Shown here piece by piece: positions 4,118 through 56,676 of a DNA stretch of 59,600 nt; position 1 is the first letter of the stretch; every line of letters begins with the position of its first letter. The position numbers and the translations under genes are program-made. Origin of the DNA: Candidatus Uhrbacteria bacterium. GTDB taxonomy: Bacteria; Patescibacteriota; Patescibacteriia; UBA9934. The notes beneath the pieces are model-generated. The model searched no databases, was not told the origin of the DNA, and saw nothing but the letters and a program-made list of their open reading frames with translations. The stretch covers positions 1-59,600 of the forward strand of contig CALRHE010000004.1 of assembly GCA_943359345.1 (NCBI GenBank), given 5' to 3'.

Positions 4118-5731
4118 CTATAAATCTGTTCCAGCACAACTTAAACCTAAAGATTGGCTGCACAGCGGAAAATCTGAAACAATATTCCCTGGTGCTATTT
4201 CGCCTAACAATGGCCAGTTACAAAACGATGGGTCACGAATAACGTAACGTTCGATTCTACCTGACTTAAGATAAACAAGGTGCAGAATTTCGCCGCGACC
4301 ATTCTCCACTGCACCTAGGTCACGACCATCCTTAGGTTCACAAGGCATTAGATGGGCACCTTCGCCTGGATTCTTGCACAATTCTTGGATCAATCTTTGG
4401 CTGTCTTTTAACTCGTCAACCCGAAGCATGAAACGGGCATAAACATCGCCCGTTACCTTGATGGGTACTGTGGGTAGGAAACGCCCATAGGCAGCGTACG
4501 GGTGGTCACGACGTACATCCCGATCAATTCCAGAAGCTCGGGCTGCAATGCCTACAGCACCGTAGGCTAAACCGGCTTCCTTGCTTAAAATACCTATATT
4601 CTCAAGCCGGTCACGTAAACCATCTGACTGGATAGCGAGACTTACCACATCCAGCATCTCATCAATTATCTCACCCATGACAATCGAAATCTTTTGAAAT
4701 TCATTAGCCTGAAAGTCACGCGACACGCCTCCAGGCACAATTAAGCCTCGCCAAAAACGGTTACCTAACAGCTCATCAGACAAGCGCACAACCTGCTCCT
4801 TGAGCCTAAAACCCTGAGATGATAAAAGCGTATACCCGGCGCCCAGGCCGCCAATCGTGGCCAGGTCAGAAATATGCATGGTTACGCGTTCAAGTTCATT
4901 CACGAGCGAACGTAAACTCTGGGCCCGTATAGACACCTTGCAAGCCGCCAAATTCTCAATTGCTTGTGCAAAGGCAAGGGCGTGCGAGGCAGCGGAGTCA
5001 CCACAAATATGCTCCACTAGCGTTAATGCTTCAGGTAGATTTTTACCTTCCAATAATTTTTCAACACCTTTATGAGTGAAAAAAAACTTACTCTCAAGGG
5101 CTATCATCCGCTCACCAGCTACGTTTAAACGAAAATGTGCGGGCTCACTAATACCCCCATAAACAGGTCCGAGTGGAATTTCAACAACACCCTCACCTAT
5201 CACAAACGGCATCGGATAAGCTATGTCGGCCGTCTCCATTTTAGCGTTCCACATAAAATCCTTGCGGAGCGGAAAATGTCCTTCCGGTACATTTTCATGG
5301 TGAACCAAACGTCGTGGGTCAGGATGACCAACTGCCTCAATACCGAACATGTCTTGAATAAATCTTTCGAACCAATGGGCCGCCATGACGCGACGTGTAA
5401 CCGATGGGTAGCTTAGATCTTCAGGCTGCAAACGTGTGGACAATAAAAACCAGGTCTGACTTGTGTCATCGTGCAGCAAAGCGTGCACACCATAACTACC
5501 CGCGCTAGTCCGATCATCAGTTGCGTACAGGTGTGCCAAAGCTAAACCAACGCCCACCAAACCGCTGACATCCAAGCTCATGCTCAGCTGCGTGGTTAGG
5601 CCCCTGACATTCACCAGTTCATCAATAATGTCGGCAAATTTTTCGCGCGGCACACTGGCGAAAACAAGGTCAGACCTGTCTGCCTGAATATGTAGGCCAA
5701 GCACGTTGCCCAAGAATTCTTTAAGGCTCAT
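4118..5731 (-). CDS. hyfG: Group-4 hydrogenase-related (Ehr) large subunit, HycE/HyfG-like NuoC+NuoD fusion, lacking NiFe-binding CxxC motifs
   Basis: WFERFIQDMFGI..GHPDPRRL, FPLRKDF, GPVYGGISEPAHFR, THKGVEK, ENGRGE, RDPSF; L1 reads HICGDS and the C-terminus reads DFPLCSQSLGLSCAGTDL (no DPCxxC). Confidence 0.88.
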   Translation of the reverse strand: MSLKEFLGNVLGLHIQADRSDLVFASVPREKFADIIDELVNVRGLTTQLSMSLDVSGLVGVGLALAHLYATDDRTSAGSYGVHALLHDDTSQTWFLLSTRLQPEDLSYPSVTRRVMAAHWFERFIQDMFGIEAVGHPDPRRLVHHENVPEGHFPLRKDFMWNAKMETADIAYPMPFVIGEGVVEIPLGPVYGGISEPAHFRLNVAGERMIALESKFFFTHKGVEKLLEGKNLPEALTLVEHICGDSAASHALAFAQAIENLAACKVSIRAQSLRSLVNELERVTMHISDLATIGGLGAGYTLLSSQGFRLKEQVVRLSDELLGNRFWRGLIVPGGVSRDFQANEFQKISIVMGEIIDEMLDVVSLAIQSDGLRDRLENIGILSKEAGLAYGAVGIAARASGIDRDVRRDHPYAAYGRFLPTVPIKVTGDVYARFMLRVDELKDSQRLIQELCKNPGEGAHLMPCEPKDGRDLGAVENGRGEILHLVYLKSGRIERYVIRDPSFCNWPLLGEIAPGNIVSDFPLCSQSLGLSCAGTDL

Positions 5732-11862: not shown

Positions 11863-11973
11863 AGATATTAGGAATTAGATATTAGTAAGAATGTAGAAGT
11901 TTGATCTTAGACTAACTGCAGCCCCCTAACTTCTAAAGTCTAAGCTCTTACTAATATCTAATTCCTAATATCT
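11863..11973. repeat. Perfect 28-bp inverted repeat built from 7-nt units in the atpD-atpC spacer
   Basis: agatattaggaattagatattagtaaga (11863-11890) and its exact reverse complement (11946-11973). Confidence 0.9.
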
Positions 11974-14224: not shown

Positions 14225-14298
14225 GGGGTTAACGGGGTTGAGGGGGTTGATGATGGCACACCGGACCTCGGTGAACAGTCAACTGTCAACGGTAAACG
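14225..14298. repeat. Three 9-nt units (ggggttRaN) plus four 7-nt units (gtNaacN) in the atpA-atpG spacer
   Basis: ggggttaac ggggttgag ggggttgat (14225-14251); gtgaaca gtcaact gtcaacg gtaaacg (14271-14298). Confidence 0.7.
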
Positions 14299-20894: not shown

Positions 20895-22340
20895 TTAAGT
20901 CTTAGTCTCCTGATCACGACGTGGAAACAAGGGCTCACCATGAATAAGCTTATCTCCAGTATAACGCCTTAGAATCTCTTCGGCCGCAGCCGGGATGACC
21001 GGGCTAAGGGCTCGACCGATCCAGACAATCATAGCCGCAAGCTCGGACAGCGAACGCTTGGCATCAGCCGGGTTGGTCTTAGCGAGCTTGAAAGGTTCTT
21101 CTGTTTGGATTTTTAGGTTAGCCGCGCTAACAACTTCCCAAACACAATCGATGTATTTCTTAAAATCGTACTGTGCCAGAGCCTCGCCCATGCGAACGTC
21201 GTACTCGGCGTGATCAAAATCAACTTTGTCGACCTCGCCCTCAAAATACTTATTACTCATGGCCGCCACACGACCCATAAGATTTCCAAGATCGTTAGCC
21301 AGCTCGGCATAGCGCTCTTCCATGCGTTTCACAGAATAATCACCATCGGTACCGTACGGCATCTCACGCAATAAATAGTAACGAACCGCGTCAGCTCCGT
21401 AGGTCGCAACCAAAGACTTGGGGTCGATGACGTTGCCGACCGACTTACTCATTTTCTGTCCGTCGACAGTAATAAAACTGTGGATGAATATCTGCTTGGA
21501 CAGCGGCAAACCAGCTGATAACAGCATGCCCTGCCACATAGCCGACTGTTGACGGAGGTTGTCGATGCCAGCTACCTGAATACCAGGCCAAAACTTCTCG
21601 AAATTCCCAGCCTGAGGCCAGTCGAGCGTCGAAATATAATTTACCAGTGCGTCAAACCACACGTACATGACATGGCCCTCATCGCCTGGGACAGCGATAC
21701 CCCACGGCATCTTATCCTTGAGTCGAGAGATACTAAAGTCGTTAAGCCCAGCCTTTACGAAGTTCTTAATCTCGTGGAATTTTTCCTTGGGAACAACAAA
21801 GTCTGGATTGGCTTCGTAATGATCAAGCAAAGCTTGCTGATATTTTGACCAGCGGAAGAAATAATTTTCCTCATCCCGCAGTTCGATCTTGTTCTTAGGA
21901 TGTGTCGGGCAACCACCGTCGACGAGTTCTGAATCAGTTTTCTCAAGCTCACAGCCCACGCAATATTTGGTCTGATACTGCTTTTTGTAAATATCGCCAG
22001 CAACCTCGCAACGTTTCCAAAACTCTTGAGCAGCGGCTACGTGTTTCTTGTCAGTCGTGCGAATGAAATGGGTGTAGGTCAAATTCAAAAGCTCACGCAG
22101 CTCGTCGAACTTGGCAGCATATTGATCGCAATAAACTTTTGGATCAAGCCCCGCCTCAAGCGCCTTCTTGTAAATTTTCTGACCGTGTTCGTCGGTACCT
22201 GTATTAAAAATCACCTCATTGCCACGCAAACGTTCAACACGAGCCAACGTGTCGGCTTGGATAATCTCCAGAGCAAAACCAATGTGCGGTTCAGCGTTGA
22301 CGTACGGCAAGGTGGTGGTTATGTAGTAAGTCTTTTTCAT
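20895..22340 (-). CDS. metG: Methionyl-tRNA synthetase (short form)
   Basis: YVNAEPHIG (HIGH-like), TGTDEHGQK, YVWFDALVNY, KMSKS. Confidence 0.97.
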   Translation of the reverse strand: MKKTYYITTTLPYVNAEPHIGFALEIIQADTLARVERLRGNEVIFNTGTDEHGQKIYKKALEAGLDPKVYCDQYAAKFDELRELLNLTYTHFIRTTDKKHVAAAQEFWKRCEVAGDIYKKQYQTKYCVGCELEKTDSELVDGGCPTHPKNKIELRDEENYFFRWSKYQQALLDHYEANPDFVVPKEKFHEIKNFVKAGLNDFSISRLKDKMPWGIAVPGDEGHVMYVWFDALVNYISTLDWPQAGNFEKFWPGIQVAGIDNLRQQSAMWQGMLLSAGLPLSKQIFIHSFITVDGQKMSKSVGNVIDPKSLVATYGADAVRYYLLREMPYGTDGDYSVKRMEERYAELANDLGNLMGRVAAMSNKYFEGEVDKVDFDHAEYDVRMGEALAQYDFKKYIDCVWEVVSAANLKIQTEEPFKLAKTNPADAKRSLSELAAMIVWIGRALSPVIPAAAEEILRRYTGDKLIHGEPLFPRRDQETKT

Positions 22341-22345
22341 AAACG

Positions 22346-22420
22346 AGCGGTAACGCGTCAGATCCCGAACAAAGCGGTAACGCGTCAGATCCTGAACGAA
22401 GGTGAAGGATCTATCGAAAC
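22346..22420. repeat. 27-nt-period tandem duplication running into a REP-like half unit
   Basis: agcggtaacgcgtcagatcc(c/t)gaac at 22346-22370 and 22373-22397; gatcctgaacgaaggtgaaggatctatcgaaac at 22388-22420 is identical to 22797-22829. Confidence 0.9.
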
Positions 22421-22427
22421 AGTTATT

Positions 22428-22724
22428 TTAAGTGCTGTCTGTGATTAGATCCTCAAATACGTCCTTCCACCTTGGATTGAACTGGTTTATTAAACCGACT
22501 TTCTTAACTCTCGTCCAGCCCTTCAGCTGCTTCTCTCTTATATATGCCTGATCTTCGTCTTCACAGCTCTCATAGTACACAAGCTTGGTACAGCGGTACT
22601 TTTGTGTAAATCCCACAACAAGGCCCTCGCGATGAGTTTCAACTCGAGCTACTAGGTGGGTACTCATACCAATATACAAAGTGCGATGAGATTCATTTGT
22701 CATGATGTAAACTCCGCAGCTCAT
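22428..22724 (-). CDS. Small stand-alone GIY-YIG nuclease (start ATG 22724 or 22730)
   Basis: GVYIMTN...LYIGMS..L..R, FTQKY..TKLVYYE, AYIREKQLKGWTR.KK, NPRWKD. Confidence 0.9.
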   Translation of the reverse strand: MSCGVYIMTNESHRTLYIGMSTHLVARVETHREGLVVGFTQKYRCTKLVYYESCEDEDQAYIREKQLKGWTRVKKVGLINQFNPRWKDVFEDLITDST

Positions 22725-22797
22725 ACGCATGCACTTATACGGATGATGATATTTCGGATTCGCGATCCTGAGCTGAGACATGGCACCCTGGCCTACG

Positions 22798-23054
22798 ATC
22801 CTGAACGAAGGTGAAGGATCTATCGAAACCATTATCGAGAACCCATTCCCAGTTTACTAGACCCTTCATCTGCATTCAGGGTCTTGGAGTATCAATTACC
22901 AATGTTCAGACTCTTGGAGTACTCAACCGTCTCGATCAGGTCACAATTGGTACTGTACTAAATCCTGAACGAAGGTGAAGGATCTATCGAAACCATTATC
23001 GAGAACCCATTCCCAGTTTACTAGACCCTTCATCTGCATTCAGGGTCTTGGAGT
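22798..23054. repeat. Two perfect 93-nt direct repeats, each an inverted REP-like doublet (REPIN/BIME-like)
   Basis: 22798-22890 = 22962-23054; each holds atcctgaacgaaggtgaaggatct and the imperfect inverse agacccttcatctgcattcagggtc. Confidence 0.92.
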
Positions 23055-23093
23055 GCACGATCGCTTAACACAACTGTTTACCATCGACTGTCC

Positions 23094-23765
23094 TCACGCC
23101 GGAGCAATGACGATCACAAACTCCCCTTTTGAACTAGTGGCCTCGATCTGCTGCATAACCTCCGCTGGTAAACCCCGGTAAATTGTCTCATGCATTTTGG
23201 TAAGCTCGCGACCAACCACAAGTGAGCGGCCGAGTTCCTTTAGAGCCTCAAGAGTTTTCATGATGCGATGCGTCGACTCATACAGCACAATTATGTGATC
23301 AATCTTAGCCAAGTCTTTAAAAAAGCTTTGGCGACCTTTCTTATGCGGTGGGAAACCAACAAATGTGAATCGATCGATCGGTAGCCCAGAAATCGATAAG
23401 GCTGCAATGACAGCGCTCGGCCCTGGAATCGGTATAACGATGACACCCGCGGCCACTGCATCAGCTACAAGAAAACTGCCAGGATCAGAAATCGCCGGCG
23501 TGCCAGCATCGGTTACGAGCGCGATGGACTTCCCAGCCACGAGCATGTCCACGAACTGCCTGCGCTTCAGGGCGTCGGTGTACTCATGAAAAGAGTTGAG
23601 CGATGGTCTGATCTCAAGCGCAGCCATGAGTTTAGCGGTGACCCGAGTATCCTCGCACAGCACCAAATCAACACTCGACAAAACTTGTTTCGCCCGTGCT
23701 GAAATATCACCCAGATGTCCAATTGGTGTTGCGACTACGAACAGTTGTCCAGCGGAGTCCGGCAT
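23094..23765 (-). CDS. rsmI: 16S rRNA (cytidine1402-2'-O)-methyltransferase (start moved to ATG 23765)
   Basis: LFVVATPIGHLGDIS, CEDTR, TDAGTPAISDPG, YESTHR, RELTKMHE. Confidence 0.95.
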   Translation of the reverse strand: MPDSAGQLFVVATPIGHLGDISARAKQVLSSVDLVLCEDTRVTAKLMAALEIRPSLNSFHEYTDALKRRQFVDMLVAGKSIALVTDAGTPAISDPGSFLVADAVAAGVIVIPIPGPSAVIAALSISGLPIDRFTFVGFPPHKKGRQSFFKDLAKIDHIIVLYESTHRIMKTLEALKELGRSLVVGRELTKMHETIYRGLPAEVMQQIEATSSKGEFVIVIAPA

Positions 23766-23766
23766 T

Positions 23767-24951
23767 TTATTGAATCTCAAGAGTTTGTCCTTCGGGTTCG
23801 ATGTCATCGAGTGGCAACAATTCCTGGCCACTAATTAGCGAGGCTGGGTACATGGCAAAGTGAGCAAAAGCGTAATGTCGTGTAAGCGGTAGTTCTGCTA
23901 GCGACGTTCCCCTAAATTCGCCGGACAAAGCCACGCCCTCAGGCGACCAACGTGAACCGGTTTCTTCATCCGTGATAGTCCCACCGACATAGTTAAATCG
24001 CAACACACGACCACTGACGTTCCGATCAAAGATCCGAACAGTATCTAGGTCCTCGTCGTACAAAGCTACGATTGAGAGTTCACCCTGGCTGTGCGGCACG
24101 ACGGCATTAGGGTCTTTTTGCATGGGCAGGTAGCGAAGCATGAACACCAGCGGCTGCTCACTCGTTTCAAATCGGTAAACTAAATCTTTGGGCTCAAGTT
24201 GATTAAAAACATGATTGAGCGGGAAAAATATTCCCGGTGAGCTTTCGTAACTGGCGTAAGGATGACGACCATAATCTCGGGCTACACCGGTATCCATGGA
24301 TAAAACTAAACCTGTCGGATGGCGATCTTTCCAGGTGGCCCAAGTCATCACAGCCGAGGGATAGATTTCAAGTTTTTGACCAACGCCCTTGCCTACAATG
24401 GCCTGTCCGGTGGTCTGATTCCACCAAGTGCCGTAACCGTCCTCCATTAACAAACCGTTATTGTACACCTGTCCGGCATCAACAAAATTATGTAACTCAC
24501 CAGTCGTCTCTGAAGCCTTAGCTGAATACACCACCGCCGAACCAGTAAGTGGCGAATACGTAATGATCAGATCCTCACCGTTGATGTTATCGTGCACGAT
24601 TTGGTGCCAGTTCAAAATCTGAAAAGGGTAAAAACGTTGTGTGTTACCCACGCTGACAGCAATGCCCTCAAGCTCATCGGCCAACTTGCTGTCGGCGCTA
24701 GCAATGTCATCATGTTTCGGATCGTGCAAGGCCGGCCTGTCATTCGCAGCCAGACCACTGGCGTAAATTTCATCAGGCGGCACCAAATACTTTAACCCAC
24801 CCTGTGAAATTGGCTCAGCGTAAACTCCCCCATCAAGTTCTGGATAACCACCAACAGCATTATCGCTCCCCCACATCCGCGATCCGGCAAAACCTAAGGC
24901 GGCTAAGATTACAATCACTATAAAGGCAATGAGGCTAGGTTGTTTTTGCAT
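23767..24951 (-). CDS. DUF3179-like exported protein
   Basis: N-terminal TM anchor; RFYPFQILNWHQIVHD, TYSPLTGS, GQVYNNGLLMED, TWATWKDRHP, DEETGSRWS. Confidence 0.75.
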   Translation of the reverse strand: MQKQPSLIAFIVIVILAALGFAGSRMWGSDNAVGGYPELDGGVYAEPISQGGLKYLVPPDEIYASGLAANDRPALHDPKHDDIASADSKLADELEGIAVSVGNTQRFYPFQILNWHQIVHDNINGEDLIITYSPLTGSAVVYSAKASETTGELHNFVDAGQVYNNGLLMEDGYGTWWNQTTGQAIVGKGVGQKLEIYPSAVMTWATWKDRHPTGLVLSMDTGVARDYGRHPYASYESSPGIFFPLNHVFNQLEPKDLVYRFETSEQPLVFMLRYLPMQKDPNAVVPHSQGELSIVALYDEDLDTVRIFDRNVSGRVLRFNYVGGTITDEETGSRWSPEGVALSGEFRGTSLAELPLTRHYAFAHFAMYPASLISGQELLPLDDIEPEGQTLEIQ

Positions 24952-27890: not shown

Positions 27891-27957
27891 ACTCTCCATC
27901 TTGAACAAGGGCAATCTCCCCTTAACCCCATCAACCCCCTTAACCCCTTTATTCAAT

Positions 27958-30348: not shown

Positions 30349-30377
30349 CTGCCGTCTCACCCCATGCAAACAACGAG

Positions 30378-30426
30378 CCCCCTCTACTGGGAGCCTGGTC
30401 GTTCTCAGCACGGGGTTTGTTGTTTA
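30378..30426 (+). repeat. 49-nt structured 3' element, copy 1
   Basis: ccccctctactgggagcctggtcgttctcagcacggggtttgttgttta, identical to 31303-31351. Confidence 0.9.
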
Positions 30427-30669
30427 AATAAAATCTGTTTAGAACAGCTAAAATACAAATCCACCTTCGTGATGAAGACGGACTGGTGGTGAACCGAAAG
30501 CTACGTTAACCGAATATTTAGAGAAAACGTTGAAAAGCTCGCATTGCTGAAGTTTAGCTTCGGAACACCCGTTGCCGCCGAATAGACAGAGCGAGCTATT
30601 TATGATAGTCTCTTGGGTCGCAAGACGCCCTACGGCAGGGACAGCCGTGTTCTTTCAAGGAGGTCGACC

Positions 30670-31272: not shown

Positions 31273-31302
31273 TCGCGTATCTCGCCCCGTACGAGCGACA
31301 AT

Positions 31303-31351
31303 CCCCCTCTACTGGGAGCCTGGTCGTTCTCAGCACGGGGTTTGTTGTTTA
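31303..31351 (+). repeat. 49-nt structured 3' element, copy 2
   Basis: Identical to 30378-30426. Confidence 0.9.
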
Positions 31352-31631
31352 GTGATAATATCTTTATGTATTAAGGAATTCGAAACCCGCGAGTAAAGCT
31401 GCTAAAAATGGGACACATATTAGCAGATGCCGAAATATCCTTTGCTATTTCTTAAACCTTAAAATAAATTCCTGTATTTAACATAGTTGGTCTAGATAGA
31501 ACTAGTAAAAATACTCTTGAAAATGAACAGGCATCTTGGCTTTTTTAACCTGACTTAGGACACATGCAGAGTAAGCTTATGCCAAAATTAGCTAGCTTTT
31601 TTTTGGAAAAATATAGTAGAGTAGTCTGATT

Positions 31632-36086: not shown

Positions 36087-36844
36087 AGCGCCCGCATCTT
36101 TTTCTTGGTGCTCAGGTGCATGGCCACAAATACAAGCGCAGCTAAAGCAGCCACGACCACGAGCGAAATCATCGGGTTCCCGTCTGAGTAACCTGTGACC
36201 GCGTAACGTAATAAGTTAATGTTGTGATGAAGTGGGTTGAAGGCGCTGACTGTATCCCAGGGTGCTGGTAAATTTGCGATCGGATAAAACACCCCAGCCA
36301 GAAAAATCATCGGCTGCATCACAAACGTCGTCATGAACGTCAAGGACTCGAAGCCCTTGGCCCACATACCAAAAGTAACCCCAAGCATACCGAACTCGAG
36401 GGCTGTGAGCGAGAAGGCTAAGAGCAACAAGAATGGGTTGTTGATACCGAGCTCTGGGATAAACCAACCCGTCACCAAAACCGCCAAGCCGATTGTGAGT
36501 AAAGCTCGTGTAAGCGCTGCTAAGGCATAAGCCACGCCTATGCTCCAGGGTCGAAGTGGGGCTAATTGAAGATCAACAATCGTACCCGTATTCTTACCAA
36601 TAACTAAAGCAAAGGCCGGATTAGAAAAGCTGCTGTTAACGATATTCATGGACAACAAGCCCACATAAATAAATAACACATACGGCAAACCCCCAATCTC
36701 TTGACCTCCGGCTACAATTCCAAAGACTGACAAGAACAGAATTGTGGACACGATCGGACTAAAGACCGTATCCATCCAGATTTTCTGAAAGCGCTTAACT
36801 TCACGCGCATACAGCGCCCACATGTAGGTCATATTTCGAGCCAC
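36083..36844 (-). CDS. ABC-2 type transporter permease (YadH-like)
   Basis: REVKRF, GVFYPI, FNPLHHNINLLRY; the start may be ATG 36832. Confidence 0.88.
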   Translation of the reverse strand: MARNMTYMWALYAREVKRFQKIWMDTVFSPIVSTILFLSVFGIVAGGQEIGGLPYVLFIYVGLLSMNIVNSSFSNPAFALVIGKNTGTIVDLQLAPLRPWSIGVAYALAALTRALLTIGLAVLVTGWFIPELGINNPFLLLLAFSLTALEFGMLGVTFGMWAKGFESLTFMTTFVMQPMIFLAGVFYPIANLPAPWDTVSAFNPLHHNINLLRYAVTGYSDGNPMISLVVVAALAALVFVAMHLSTKKKMRAL

Positions 36845-36920
36845 CCTGAGTTCAACAAAGGGTCAGGTCCCCCGAGGCTGAAACACCACGGGCTACTTAT
36901 CCTTCCTTACGTCAGGATGG
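36841..36920. repeat. Degenerate REP-doublet of the same family as 22798-23054
   Basis: ccaccctgagttcaacaaagggtc...atccttccttacgtcaggatgg; the arm ends match the GIY-YIG-associated arms. Confidence 0.6.
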
Positions 36921-36928
36921 AAATTAGT

Positions 36929-44089: not shown

Positions 44090-44365
44090 ATGTCCCGTTG
44101 GTTTGTGTATATCTTACGCTGCAAAAATGGCAGCCTCTACACCGGCATCACCAACAACCTGGAAGCCCGCGTGACTAAGCACAACGCCGGGCGAGGTGCC
44201 AAGTACACCCGAGCTTTTGGACCGACCAAACTCGTGTACTCACAGGCTATGAAATCACCGACCGCCGCCCGCAAACGCGAGGCCGAAATCAAGAGCTGGA
44301 GCAAAGCCGCGAAGGAAAAAATTATTCAACTTTATTTCGGTTACTCACCGCCACGAAGTAGCTGA
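44090..44365 (+). CDS. GIY-YIG nuclease, UPF0213/YhbQ-like
   Basis: WFVYILRC.NGSLYTGITNNL..R..KHN.G.GAKYTR, A.KREAEIK. Confidence 0.92.
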   Translation: MSRWFVYILRCKNGSLYTGITNNLEARVTKHNAGRGAKYTRAFGPTKLVYSQAMKSPTAARKREAEIKSWSKAAKEKIIQLYFGYSPPRSS

Positions 44366-54816: not shown

Positions 54817-56676
54817 CTAGGGGGCGGGGCGTGAGATGAGCTTGGAATATTCAGCTAAGAGCTCCGTCAAACGTGACGACTCGCCACCAATTTCTGCGTG
54901 GCGGATTGCTGCTTCCAAGTCTTTACGCCTCTTCATGAGTTGCGCCGAGGCAAACAGCGCTAAATGGTTTTCAACCTCGTGTTGTACCTGGATTGGCGTC
55001 AGACCGGCCAGGATCTCGTCGCTGCGGAGAGCTATGGCATCAAGCGTTTGCACACTTTGAGGCTGTTGCTGTCCTTCGAGATAGGCCCGTAGACGCGAAA
55101 AAAGACTTTGGGGAGGTACGGAGGTTGGTATTTGTGGAGCAGTGTAAACGATGTCTAAGGCTATGTAAAGCGACTTCCATGGTTCTGTTAAACTTTCTTT
55201 AGGAACATTGGCCAAAATTGCTTGCGTGTAGGGCTCATAACGTAAAGCTGCGCCTAGCAAAAGCTCGGCGGCCTGAAGCTCAGGGGTTGAAGAGGTTGAG
55301 GGAGTTAAGGTAGTTGATGGGGTTGAAGGGGTTGAGGGAGTTAATCTTTTATCTTTTATCTTCAGTTCATCAACCATAGCCTGCAAGACATCTGTGCCTA
55401 CATGCGTGGCGTCGGCAATCCGGAGTAAATACAAATGTCGCTCGTCTGGCCGTTGCACGCGTGCCACGTGTGGTAAGAGCTCGTCAATTAAACGTCGGCG
55501 AGCTTCAATACTCGTTGCCCCGCCTTGGTCTTCAAACATGCGGATGACTTTCTGGAAATAATATTCGATGACTGCTTGCGAGTCACTCGCGATCTTAACC
55601 CACTCACTCGGATCACGTTGCACAATCTCATCTGGATCTTTGCCTACGCCAGCCGGCACCACCAAACAGCGTACATCAAACTGCAGTGCGGGATCAGCGG
55701 CTTTGAGTTTAATGGCCAGCTCAACCACACGTTTAGCAGCCGCGAAACCAGCCGCGTCGTCATCAAGACAAAACACTAAACGCTTGGTATAGCGAGCCAA
55801 CGTCCGCAACTGTGTCTCAGTGAGAGCTGTGCCTGAACTACCGACGACATTCTCGATCTGCGCCTTGTGCGAAGCAATCACGTCAAGATTGCCTTCGACG
55901 ATAATGACCTCTCCGGTCTTGCGAATCCCAGTTTTAGCCAGATGCAAACCGTAGAGCATCGAGCCCTTGTGATAGATAGCTGTCTCTGGCGAGTTTACGT
56001 ATTTACCTTGATCAGCCGGTGCGCCCGGCATGACCCGGGCCGTAAAGCCGACGACAACGCCGGCAGCGTCGCACAGGGGGATCATCAAACGATTACGGAA
56101 ACGATCCACCAGCCCGCTACCTGACTTACGCTTAAGACCAAGACCGCTATCCAGAATGTCTTGTTCTGAAAAACCTTTCTTCGCAAGCAGGTTAACGAGC
56201 ACATCCCAATCATCCGGCGAAGCACCCAGCTGGAATTTATTCATCAGCTCGGGTCCAATATTTCTGGTCGCCACGTACTCGCGCACAACTTGTCCGTTTG
56301 GATACTCGCGTAAGCAAGTAGCGTAAAACTCAGCCGCCACCGCGTGAATCTTTTTCAAAACATCGCGCCTGTCTGTCTCCTGGGTTGGTCGATACTCAGG
56401 GAGCTCGACACCAGCCCTGGCTGCCAGGTGTTTCAAAGCTTCTGGGAAGGTCAAGCCCTCCATCTCCATAACAAACGAGAAGATGTCCCCACCCTTATCG
56501 CAGCCAAAGCACTTCCAAATCTGCCGTTCCCTGGAAACATGAAAAGACGGGGTCCGCTCAGCATGAAATGGGCAAATACCCTTCATTGAGCCACTCCCAG
56601 ATGGCTTTAAGGGGACGTATTCGCCAATCACCTCGGCCACGTCGAGTTTTAGTTTAATCTCGTCCTTAGCTTCCAT
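54817..56676 (-). CDS. dnaG: DNA primase
   Basis: CPFHAERTPSF, KCFGC, KYVNSPET, VEGNLDV, TOPRIM D.D.AG, KDPDE. Confidence 0.97.
   Translation of the reverse strand: MEAKDEIKLKLDVAEVIGEYVPLKPSGSGSMKGICPFHAERTPSFHVSRERQIWKCFGCDKGGDIFSFVMEMEGLTFPEALKHLAARAGVELPEYRPTQETDRRDVLKKIHAVAAEFYATCLREYPNGQVVREYVATRNIGPELMNKFQLGASPDDWDVLVNLLAKKGFSEQDILDSGLGLKRKSGSGLVDRFRNRLMIPLCDAAGVVVGFTARVMPGAPADQGKYVNSPETAIYHKGSMLYGLHLAKTGIRKTGEVIIVEGNLDVIASHKAQIENVVGSSGTALTETQLRTLARYTKRLVFCLDDDAAGFAAAKRVVELAIKLKAADPALQFDVRCLVVPAGVGKDPDEIVQRDPSEWVKIASDSQAVIEYYFQKVIRMFEDQGGATSIEARRRLIDELLPHVARVQRPDERHLYLLRIADATHVGTDVLQAMVDELKIKDKRLTPSTPSTPSTTLTPSTSSTPELQAAELLLGAALRYEPYTQAILANVPKESLTEPWKSLYIALDIVYTAPQIPTSVPPQSLFSRLRAYLEGQQQPQSVQTLDAIALRSDEILAGLTPIQVQHEVENHLALFASAQLMKRRKDLEAAIRHAEIGGESSRLTELLAEYSKLISRPAP
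55283..55345 (-). repeat. Seven in-frame 9-nt units inside dnaG encoding LTPSTPSTPSTTLTPSTSSTP
   Basis: ggggttgaa gaggttgag ggagttaag gtagttgat ggggttgaa ggggttgag ggagttaat. Confidence 0.85.

Follow-up and report, generated by a model that had tools for sequence, protein, structure and literature searches.

Closest described systems

The Ssn family consists of single-domain GIY-YIG proteins of about 94 amino acids (aa; CDD cd10448) that act as single-stranded-DNA nucleases, and NTS/SRM hairpin repeats flank 71% of the ssn genes on one side or more and 42% of them on both sides (Chenal et al. 2025, Nat Commun, PMC11893778). A comparable arrangement is present in a stretch of 59.6 kb from a Candidatus Uhrbacteria bacterium (Patescibacteriota; contig CALRHE010000004.1, positions 1 to 59,600), referred to here as the window, in which a gene for a 98-aa GIY-YIG protein lies between rsmI and metG and has inverted hairpins on both sides. 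Comparison with relatives suggests that this is probably a hairpin-nuclease-hairpin cassette of the Ssn kind, with the hairpins as cognate DNA sites, inserted at the rsmI/metG junction and with SsnA-like cutting. The link between a small GIY-YIG nuclease and hairpins is already published, and the locus would be a further member in Patescibacteria.

One member, SsnA of Neisseria meningitidis, binds the folded hairpin only as single-stranded DNA and in one orientation, and cuts a few nucleotides (nt) upstream of it; it neither acts on duplex DNA or RNA nor binds RNA, and the mutants Y6A, Y17A and E64A are inactive (Chenal et al. 2025, PMC11893778). Cutting is governed by the three bases upstream of the palindrome, and the SsnA hairpin has a conserved CGTC tag. 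At the level of the host, SsnA has a role in transformation. The arrangement NTS-ssnA-NTS was likened to an insertion sequence, to IS200/IS605 and to repetitive extragenic palindromes (REP) in the discussion of the same study (PMC11893778). Apart from that study, no paper linking GIY-YIG genes to such repeats, to REPIN/RAYT or to Patescibacteria was found among the papers searched.

Layout of the locus

All coordinates refer to the plus strand of the window; rsmI, the nuclease gene and metG are all on the minus strand. The features of the locus are as follows.

23094..23765, minus strand: rsmI, 16S rRNA 2'-O-methyltransferase, 223 aa (PF00590, TP_methylase, E=3e-26; homologs 223 aa)
23055..23093, minus strand: unique linker of 39 nt from the rsmI stop to the first repeat unit, read from the sequence
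22962..23054, minus strand: distal 93-nt unit (unit 1), 100% identical to the proximal unit, with about 2x unitig depth in run X2
22891..22961, minus strand: unique 71-nt piece between the units, containing ACTCCAAGAGTCTGAAC, in which the beginning of hairpin A recurs in degenerate form (repeat family D4)
22798..22890, minus strand: proximal 93-nt unit (unit 2), with hairpin A at 22860-22883, a spacer and hairpin B at 22797-22820
22428..22724, minus strand: gene of the Ssn-like single-domain GIY-YIG nuclease, 98 aa (ATG 22724-22722, stop 22430-22428; PF01541)
22383..22427, plus strand: right cassette end, with the CGTCA tag at 22383-22387, the hairpin GATCCTGAACGAAGGTGAAGGATC at 22388-22411 and the inner flank TATCGAAACAGTTATT
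22346-22372 and 22373-22399, no strand assigned: tandem duplication of 27 nt, 93% identical (repeat family D3)
20895..22340, minus strand: metG, methionyl-tRNA synthetase, 481 aa (PF09334, E=1e-93; ATG at 22340)

In gene orientation, rsmI is followed by the 39-nt linker, unit 1, the 71 unique nt, unit 2, 73 nt and the nuclease gene. Downstream of the gene follow a 16-nt inner flank, a hairpin, TGACG (CGTCA on the plus strand), the 27-nt duplication and metG. Each unit contains two 24-nt hairpins inverted relative to each other, with a spacer of 39 nt between them: hairpin A is GACCCTGAATGCAGATGAAGGGTC, and hairpin B, GATCCTTCACCTTCGTTCAGGATC, is nearly its reverse complement. The distal unit reads ACTCCAA, hairpin A (23024-23047), spacer, hairpin B (22961-22984). 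Both copies of the unit are repeated with a period of 164 nt, and a third copy of the first 39 nt of the unit lies at 22388-22426, preceded by CGTCA. Five hairpins (22388-22411, 22797-22820, 22860-22883, 22961-22984 and 23024-23047) are thereby arranged around the nuclease gene. The inner flank of the right end is also found beside hairpin B, both in the upstream units and in relatives. Three copies of the 23-nt core are present in the window, whereas 100 shuffles gave none.

An earlier note, made from the letters of this DNA, had described a 98-aa GIY-YIG gene between rsmI and metG, two identical 93-nt units and a 27-nt duplication on the metG side, all of which were confirmed (PF01541, PF00590 and PF09334 for the three genes). 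Its half repeat preceded by CGTCA does exist as a copy with this tag, but the copy is actually a complete hairpin plus 16 nt of inner flank. The doublet architecture of arm, spacer and inverted arm also held, but the spacer is 39 nt instead of about 36, and each arm is itself a 24-nt hairpin.

The 98-aa protein and its relation to the Ssn family

The protein matched PF01541 with E=1e-14, the match at residues 39-109 of the 134-aa open reading frame (ORF) corresponding to residues 3-73 of the 98-aa protein. Its AlphaFold model is one compact GIY-YIG domain (pLDDT 94.9), and the nearest solved folds are UPF0213 protein BH0048, the N-terminal domain of UvrC, Slx1 and I-TevI. In 21 homologs there is no variation at Y17, G19, R27, H31, E64 and N83 and hardly any at Y6; Y6, Y17 and E64 have the same residue numbers as the residues mutated in SsnA. 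GIY-YIG is the sole Pfam domain and the fold, which sets the enzyme apart from the HUH/Y1 (IS200/IS605-like) tyrosine transposases, in agreement with the class proposed in the earlier note. A sequence search of the PDB gave no relative with a solved structure and no Ssn entry, and NCBIfam gave only partial matches below threshold. The ratio of nonsynonymous to synonymous substitution rates (dN/dS) was 0.05-0.085 where synonymous sites were unsaturated, so that the nuclease gene is under purifying selection.

A free-standing GIY-YIG homing endonuclease of the I-TevI or Seg type was considered and rejected: the protein ends 15 residues past the last conserved core residue and has no C-terminal DNA-binding domain, and the same clade occurs together with hairpins at unrelated loci. 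A second GIY-YIG gene of the window (44090-44365, plus strand, 91 aa, UPF0213/YhbQ-like) is 32% identical to the 98-aa protein. The ORFs on either side, one a helicase-like gene of 585 aa and the other a Cys-rich gene of 107 aa, both overlap with it, and no flanking hairpins were found at 44090-44365; it therefore serves as an internal control.

A connection to the Neisseria-type repeats is given by P0241, the protein of locus L061, to which the window protein is 51% identical (E=1e-31, no gaps) and whose gene is flanked by hairpins fitting the NTS. The Neisseria-type hairpin TGTCATTCCCGCGAAAGCGGGAATCCAG was found at L061, L096 and L109. It fits the NTS consensus except for the first base (T for C), and all three were matched by the published SRM pattern, HGTCWYN(0-2)YYVSBRHN(0-5)WNVSBRGN(0-2)RNCYNB. 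No Neisseria protein was among the best 120 matches of a protein search started from an NTS-flanked homolog.

Flanking hairpins were then counted at 72 metagenomic loci with homologs 43-58% identical to the window protein and with both flanks available. An outward-facing hairpin with a (C/T)GTC tag was present on at least one side in 50 of the 72 loci and on both sides in 37, to be compared with the published 71% and 42%. More distant homologs in other phyla also have flanking hairpins, tagged TGTCAT or CGTCAT. Covariation of the proteins with their palindromes, which the earlier note had suggested as a test, was observed: protein distance and hairpin distance were correlated (Mantel r=0.43, 0/999 permutations), and the correlation was r=0.20 (6/999) without the window's own clade.

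The locus therefore shares several properties with the Ssn system: a single-domain GIY-YIG protein whose length is in the range of about 95-100 aa and whose catalytic residues are Y6, Y17 and E64, inverted copies of a directional hairpin on both sides of the gene, a palindrome followed by C and Y-R-G/T, and covariation of protein and hairpin across lineages. The 3' flank of the window hairpins (C, then TAG or TAT) matches the C-YRG after the NTS palindrome, and the 3' part of the SRM pattern, R-N-C-Y-N-B, does fit them (ATCTAG or ATCTAT). In contrast to Ssn, the window hairpins have no conserved (C/T)GTC tag and fall outside the published SRM pattern. They have a 6-bp stem, a G-A/A-G internal loop and a mini-stem, whereas the Ssn hairpins have a GC-rich stem of 7-8 bp and a 4-nt loop. 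The host also differs, being a member of the Patescibacteria in whose genome the exact repeat appears not to be dispersed, and the activity of the window enzyme is a predicted one. Taken together, these data fit membership of the 98-aa protein in the Ssn family, with its hairpins as a putative tag-less variant.

Structure and conservation of the hairpins

Each hairpin of 24 nt is built from a stem of 6 bp, an internal loop (G-A/A-G), a further stem of 2 bp and a loop of 4 nt. Pairing was examined in 31 distinct hairpins from relatives of the window, in which the two inner pairs were not constrained by the search pattern. The positions were paired in 98.8% of cases, and three of the eight pairs showed compensatory changes (C-G to T-A, A-T to G-C and C-G to T-A); this was reached in 0 of 500 shuffles. 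In 11 doublets, pairing within the arms was 99.4% with six covarying pairs, again reached in 0 of 500 shuffles, whereas pairing from arm to arm was 87%, below the mean of the shuffles, with a single compensatory cell. As pairing has been kept within the arms and not between them, the arms fold separately. The long hairpin joining both arms, which the earlier note had envisaged and which is weakly better than shuffled sequence (-12.6 kcal/mol, z=-2.15), was rejected as a functional structure on this account.

The arms are separated by 39 nt in the window and by 37-59 nt in relatives. Conservation extends to the inner flank, which reads TAG.AAACTGGGAATGG on one side and TATCGAAAC.GTTATTT on the other, but not to the outer flank. 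CGTCA precedes one hairpin only, at 22383-22387, which is one of the five copies in the window. In the clade as a whole (37 hairpin sequences, of which two are probably chance matches), the three bases before the hairpin are C/T, A/C and A. The hairpins are far better conserved than saturated synonymous sites.

Filled sites, other loci and empty sites

Proteins about 80% identical to the window protein are encoded at the same rsmI-metG site (L007, L008-10, L025 and L032), with a single upstream unit in the layout A-spacer-B, gene, B. Proteins about 66-71% identical occur at three unrelated loci (L011, L012 and L027) with the simple layout A-gene-B and the same hairpins. The sites of two of these cassettes are as follows.

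L011: with a HIT-family gene on one side and a deaminase gene on the other
L012: between lgt and a hypothetical gene downstream of gatA

In L011, a single extra hairpin of the same module is also present at 4373-4394, about 560 nt upstream of the cassette and with no partner arm.

Empty sites were found in L113, L115/116 and L117, whose RsmI proteins are 83-88% identical to that of the window. In these, rsmI directly abuts metG, either with a gap of 1 nt or with the codons overlapping as ATGA, and no such hairpin was found within 3 kb of the sites in L113, L115 and L117. By this comparison the left edge of the insertion is the rsmI stop and the right edge the metG ATG, and the cassette appears to be an insertion at the junction of the rsmI stop and the metG start. 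The inserted length is 753 nt in the window, 479 nt in L007 and 470 nt in L008. The linker after rsmI is not conserved, being 20 nt in L007 and 12 nt in L008 versus 39 nt in the window. In the MetG tree, the empty L113 is sister to the filled L025 and L032 with a support of 100/99. This calls for two or more gains or losses, or else for an exchange in which the flanks recombined homologously.

Copy number and doublets without a gene

The exact core is confined to this locus within the window. Nor does the exact repeat appear to be dispersed in this genome as a whole, so that there is probably no REP-like array here. The core depth of the unitigs, the one genome-wide estimate, agrees with this: a 33-nt core unitig had about 2-3x the depth of its flanks (29 versus about 10, 26 versus about 10, and 16 versus about 5-8), which fits the copies at the locus and is incompatible with tens of additional identical ones.

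A wider scan for GAYCCTGARYGNANRTGAAGGRTC was made in a collection holding one genome per species, to which the window's own species does not belong. It returned 15 stretches only, comprising cassettes and arm-spacer-arm doublets without a gene, the latter in short intergenic gaps. By our own estimate, the pattern would be matched by chance about twice in 596 Gb. Single matches in a Bryobacteraceae contig (L018) and a Bacteroides contig (L020) had no partner arm and were set aside as probably due to chance. Viral contigs gave no match to the hairpin pattern.

Genome JAUPWK01 contains the gene-less doublets L022 and L023 alongside the cassette L025, and CAZXUX01 contains, together with the cassette L027, the doublets L021 and L024 and the copy L019, whose second arm has decayed. 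Gene-less doublets were also found in CAZVBP01 and JBBUCB01. Their spacers reuse the sub-terminal sequences just inside the cassette ends, and the two arms of a doublet differ consistently from each other in the manner of left and right ends. In sequence, the gene-less doublets would look like internal-deletion derivatives of the cassette. Doublet L023 sits between convergent genes. At 5587-5594 of L022, the upstream ORF ends on a TGA inside the hairpin start GATCCTGA, so that the element supplies the stop codon of its neighbour. A lone extra hairpin without partner arm was seen at 982-1003 of L029, about 255 nt before a gene-less doublet.

One gene-less doublet lies in the window itself.

36838..36922, no strand assigned: gene-less doublet of the same hairpin module (ACCCT-GA..AA-AGGGT, 35-nt spacer, ATCCT-TC..TC-AGGAT)

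It is situated between two minus-strand ORFs, its spacer is unrelated, and GCCA/TCCA replaces the GTCA tag.

Comparison with other repeat systems

The earlier note had proposed a nuclease with its own palindromes in the manner of REP and RAYT. This is upheld in large part, as the layout it rested on is kept in the relatives of about 80% and about 70% identity, but such a link has already been published, and there is probably no REP-like array in this genome. The REP/REPIN-RAYT systems of Pseudomonas and Enterobacteria (Bertels & Rainey 2011, PMC3116915) resemble the locus in having a single-copy nuclease gene with inverted short palindromes on each side, scattered intergenic doublets of two inverted palindromes and a spacer without the gene, and mostly vertical inheritance. 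They differ in that the enzyme is an HUH/Y1 transposase instead of a GIY-YIG hydrolase, and in the GTAG tag, which is absent here. Their copies number hundreds per genome as against a few here, and transposition chemistry is not evidenced for the window system.

The REP superfamily with CGTC tags (Di Nocera, De Gregorio & Rocco 2013, PMC3733652) likewise consists of short intergenic palindromes, often paired in opposite orientation, and was described as having no dedicated transposase. Homologs of the window protein across phyla are flanked by hairpins with (C/T)GTCAT tags, which forms a further likeness. In the window's clade, by contrast, the tag is not conserved and the copy number is very low.

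IS200/IS605 elements and the bacterial miniature inverted-repeat transposable elements (MITEs) are similar in their sub-terminal hairpins recognised as single-stranded DNA, the absence of a target-site duplication, an excision that can be precise and the existence of short non-autonomous derivatives. In IS200/IS605, however, the recognised hairpins are both on one strand and rejoining proceeds via a covalent tyrosine link, whereas the motif of the window is inverted at the two ends and the GIY-YIG class cannot rejoin DNA.

Proposed mode of action and alternatives

By analogy with SsnA, an Ssn-kind cassette at this locus would work as follows. Its layout would be motif, gene and inverted motif, the outer ends pointing away from the gene, with the complete upstream doublet present twice. 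Each arm would fold alone in single-stranded DNA, as with SsnA of Neisseria. The enzyme would bind the strand reading GAYCCTGA....GAAGGRTC-TA(G/T), which can be aligned with the NTS (palindrome, C, YRG), and would make its cut in the outer flank, which is not conserved, at a distance of a few nt 5' of the hairpin. The predicted cuts are on the plus strand to the left of 22388, 22797 and 22961, and on the other strand to the right of 22883 and 23047. The cassette would be inherited with the host in part of the lineage under purifying selection and would relocate over longer times, and the gene-less doublets would be internally deleted derivatives, REPIN- or MITE-like, that have spread in sister genomes. 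Visible activity in this genome would be local and comprise the variation between one and two doublets and the 27-nt duplication, which covers the first of the predicted cutting zones (left of 22388); it is a matter of speculation that both are possible by-products of such breaks. Candidate routes to new sites would be repair copying triggered by the nuclease, or homologous recombination of the flanks. Either route would depend on repair or recombination by the host, as DNA cannot be rejoined by enzymes of the GIY-YIG class.

Several observations weigh against this reading. The SRM pattern had no match in the window, L007, L008, L011, L012, L025 and L027, whereas the positive controls were matched, and the 5' tag bases that steer cutting by SsnA are not conserved in the window's clade. 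The enzyme would have almost no targets in this genome beyond its own flanks. No target-site duplication was found in the outer flanks of 37 hairpins, and no movement was observed. The nuclease gene is about 80% identical in relatives versus 83-87% for MetG and RsmI, a co-divergence that fits long vertical residence. The patchy pattern could be due to loss only or to exchange by homologous recombination, as is evident near the locus. What is assumed here on cleavage, on the choice of strand and on the position of the cut is taken from SsnA, whose hairpin does have the CGTC tag.

A stronger version would be a self-sufficient mobile element of about 460 nt, encoding the 98-aa nuclease alone, in which cutting beside the folded ends, together with host repair, would suffice for a clean excision of the unit and for copying it and the 87-nt doublets into new intergenic stop/start junctions; this can be entertained only tentatively. 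Rather unlikely, and the first of the alternatives proper, is an autonomous minimal transposon: here the unit of about 460 nt would move alone with the GIY-YIG nuclease as its sole enzyme, a novel type of 'transposase' belonging to neither the HUH nor the DDE class, would be excised precisely and would mobilise the doublets in trans. The same cassette at four or more unrelated intergenic sites, the clean stop/start junctions of the empty sites and the interleaving of filled and empty loci on the MetG tree all speak for such movement, as do the scattered doublets, which retain the cassette ends and sub-terminal sequence and whose arms differ consistently like left and right ends. However, the GIY-YIG superfamily consists of hydrolytic nucleases, which are not known to transfer strands or to rejoin DNA. 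Excision products, circle junctions and new insertions were not seen, and there are very few copies. The gene has diverged in step with the host genes at this locus, and the patchy presence can be explained equally well if the flanks underwent homologous recombination.

Less probable still is a domesticated, immobile host nuclease acting on single-stranded DNA such as transforming DNA, with hairpins that are mere leftovers of some ancient element or sites of self-regulation and a patchiness caused by repeated loss. It would account for the strong purifying selection, the position conserved in relatives with about 20% protein divergence and the confinement of the repeat to a single locus in this genome, and SsnA does have a host-level role in transformation. 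Against it, homologs of about 70% identity have the same ends at different loci, and gene-less doublets are dispersed in sister genomes. Hairpins far better conserved than saturated synonymous sites are not decaying leftovers, and three independent losses would each have to recreate a stop/start junction of 0-1 nt.

The hairpins might also act as RNA, being co-transcribed and stabilising, processing or insulating the messenger, so that the link to the nuclease would be incidental. The three genes do lie on one strand and are separated by short gaps, the hairpin with its GNRA-like loop and G-A/A-G pairs would fold as RNA too, and transcription and a function as RNA have been argued to be plausible for many REPs (Di Nocera et al. 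2013, PMC3733652). This explanation is nevertheless very improbable. Rfam gave no family at E<=1 around the locus (the whole window gave three tRNAs only), and scans of the locus revealed neither a promoter-like site nor a terminator-like T tract. Both orientations are equally conserved, one doublet (L023) is placed between convergent genes, the hairpins track the nuclease gene across loci and phyla, and SsnA does not bind RNA (PMC11893778). Three metatranscriptomes of the same samples had zero coverage at the locus and are uninformative on transcription.

Assembly support and strain variants

An assembly artefact or an insignificant chance duplication, for which the one-unit assemblies L005 and L006 and the breaking of unitigs at repeats might be cited, has a negligible probability, because two units are present in four independent assemblies, a bridging unitig occurs in runs of two studies, the core is found three times with none expected, and the hairpins are conserved and covarying in other genomes. 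The possibility that the duplication was such an artefact, which the earlier note had raised against itself, was thus disposed of.

The four assemblies sharing the two-unit layout are L001-L004. The unitig bridging unit 1 and unit 2 (22861-22991) was present in runs X2 and X6 of two different studies (Logan unitigs, public lake metagenomes) and was not seen in X1 and X3. As the one-unit allele of L005 and L006 does not contain the unique 71-nt piece, we infer that it is a deletion between the two direct repeats and not the ancestor. In strain L001 the proximal unit differs by 2 nt, located in the loop of hairpin A. The 27-nt duplication, which takes in the outer flank and the CGTCA tag as well as 12 nt at the beginning of the right-end hairpin, is present in all strains of the window's species (L001-L006) and absent from L007, L008 and L025.

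The strains also form a sharp recombination mosaic within housekeeping genes. From about 23400 onwards, across the cassette and metG and further, L001 and L003 do not differ from the window, but they are 20-30% different from it at about 23440-24300, that is in the 5' half of rsmI and the 3' part of a DUF3179 gene. A recombination breakpoint at the repeats was rejected, as the mosaic breaks about 300 nt inside rsmI, away from the hairpins.

Other repeats in the window

An 87-nt direct repeat is present at 30355-30441 and 31280-31366, the copies being 84% identical and at a distance of 925 nt. Within the repeat, a GC-rich inverted repeat (ACAACGA...TCGTT / CCCC...GGGG) precedes an A/T-rich tail, and the whole is possibly a shared 3' end or a small repeat element. 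A large near-palindrome at 11863-11973 has 48-nt arms that are 83% complementary, a 15-nt centre and AT-rich phased words (AGATATTAGGAATTAGATATTAG...). Runs with a period of 9 nt (GGGGTTGAN) occur at 55283-55344, 14225-14259 and 27918-27947, one of them on the opposite strand, and probably represent a repeated peptide motif in coding sequence.

Meaning for the Ssn family

The layout resembling an insertion sequence is only a hypothesis in the study of Chenal et al. 2025 (PMC11893778). The locus offers a natural test case, with filled and empty alleles in close relatives, a gene under selection, covarying tag-less hairpins and doublets in sister genomes. If the cassette were a self-sufficient element, it would transpose by a route that belongs to none of the HUH, DDE and serine/tyrosine recombinase classes, and it would provide a partner enzyme for the widespread 'orphan' hairpin repeats of the type ATCCT-GA...GA-AGGAT. 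If the enzyme does not cut the tag-less hairpins, family assignment by sequence alone would be unsafe for this clade. If it does cut them, the range of Ssn specificity would be wider, which would be relevant to the proposed single-stranded-DNA tools, and an 'orphan' hairpin repeat found across phyla would be tied to an enzyme.

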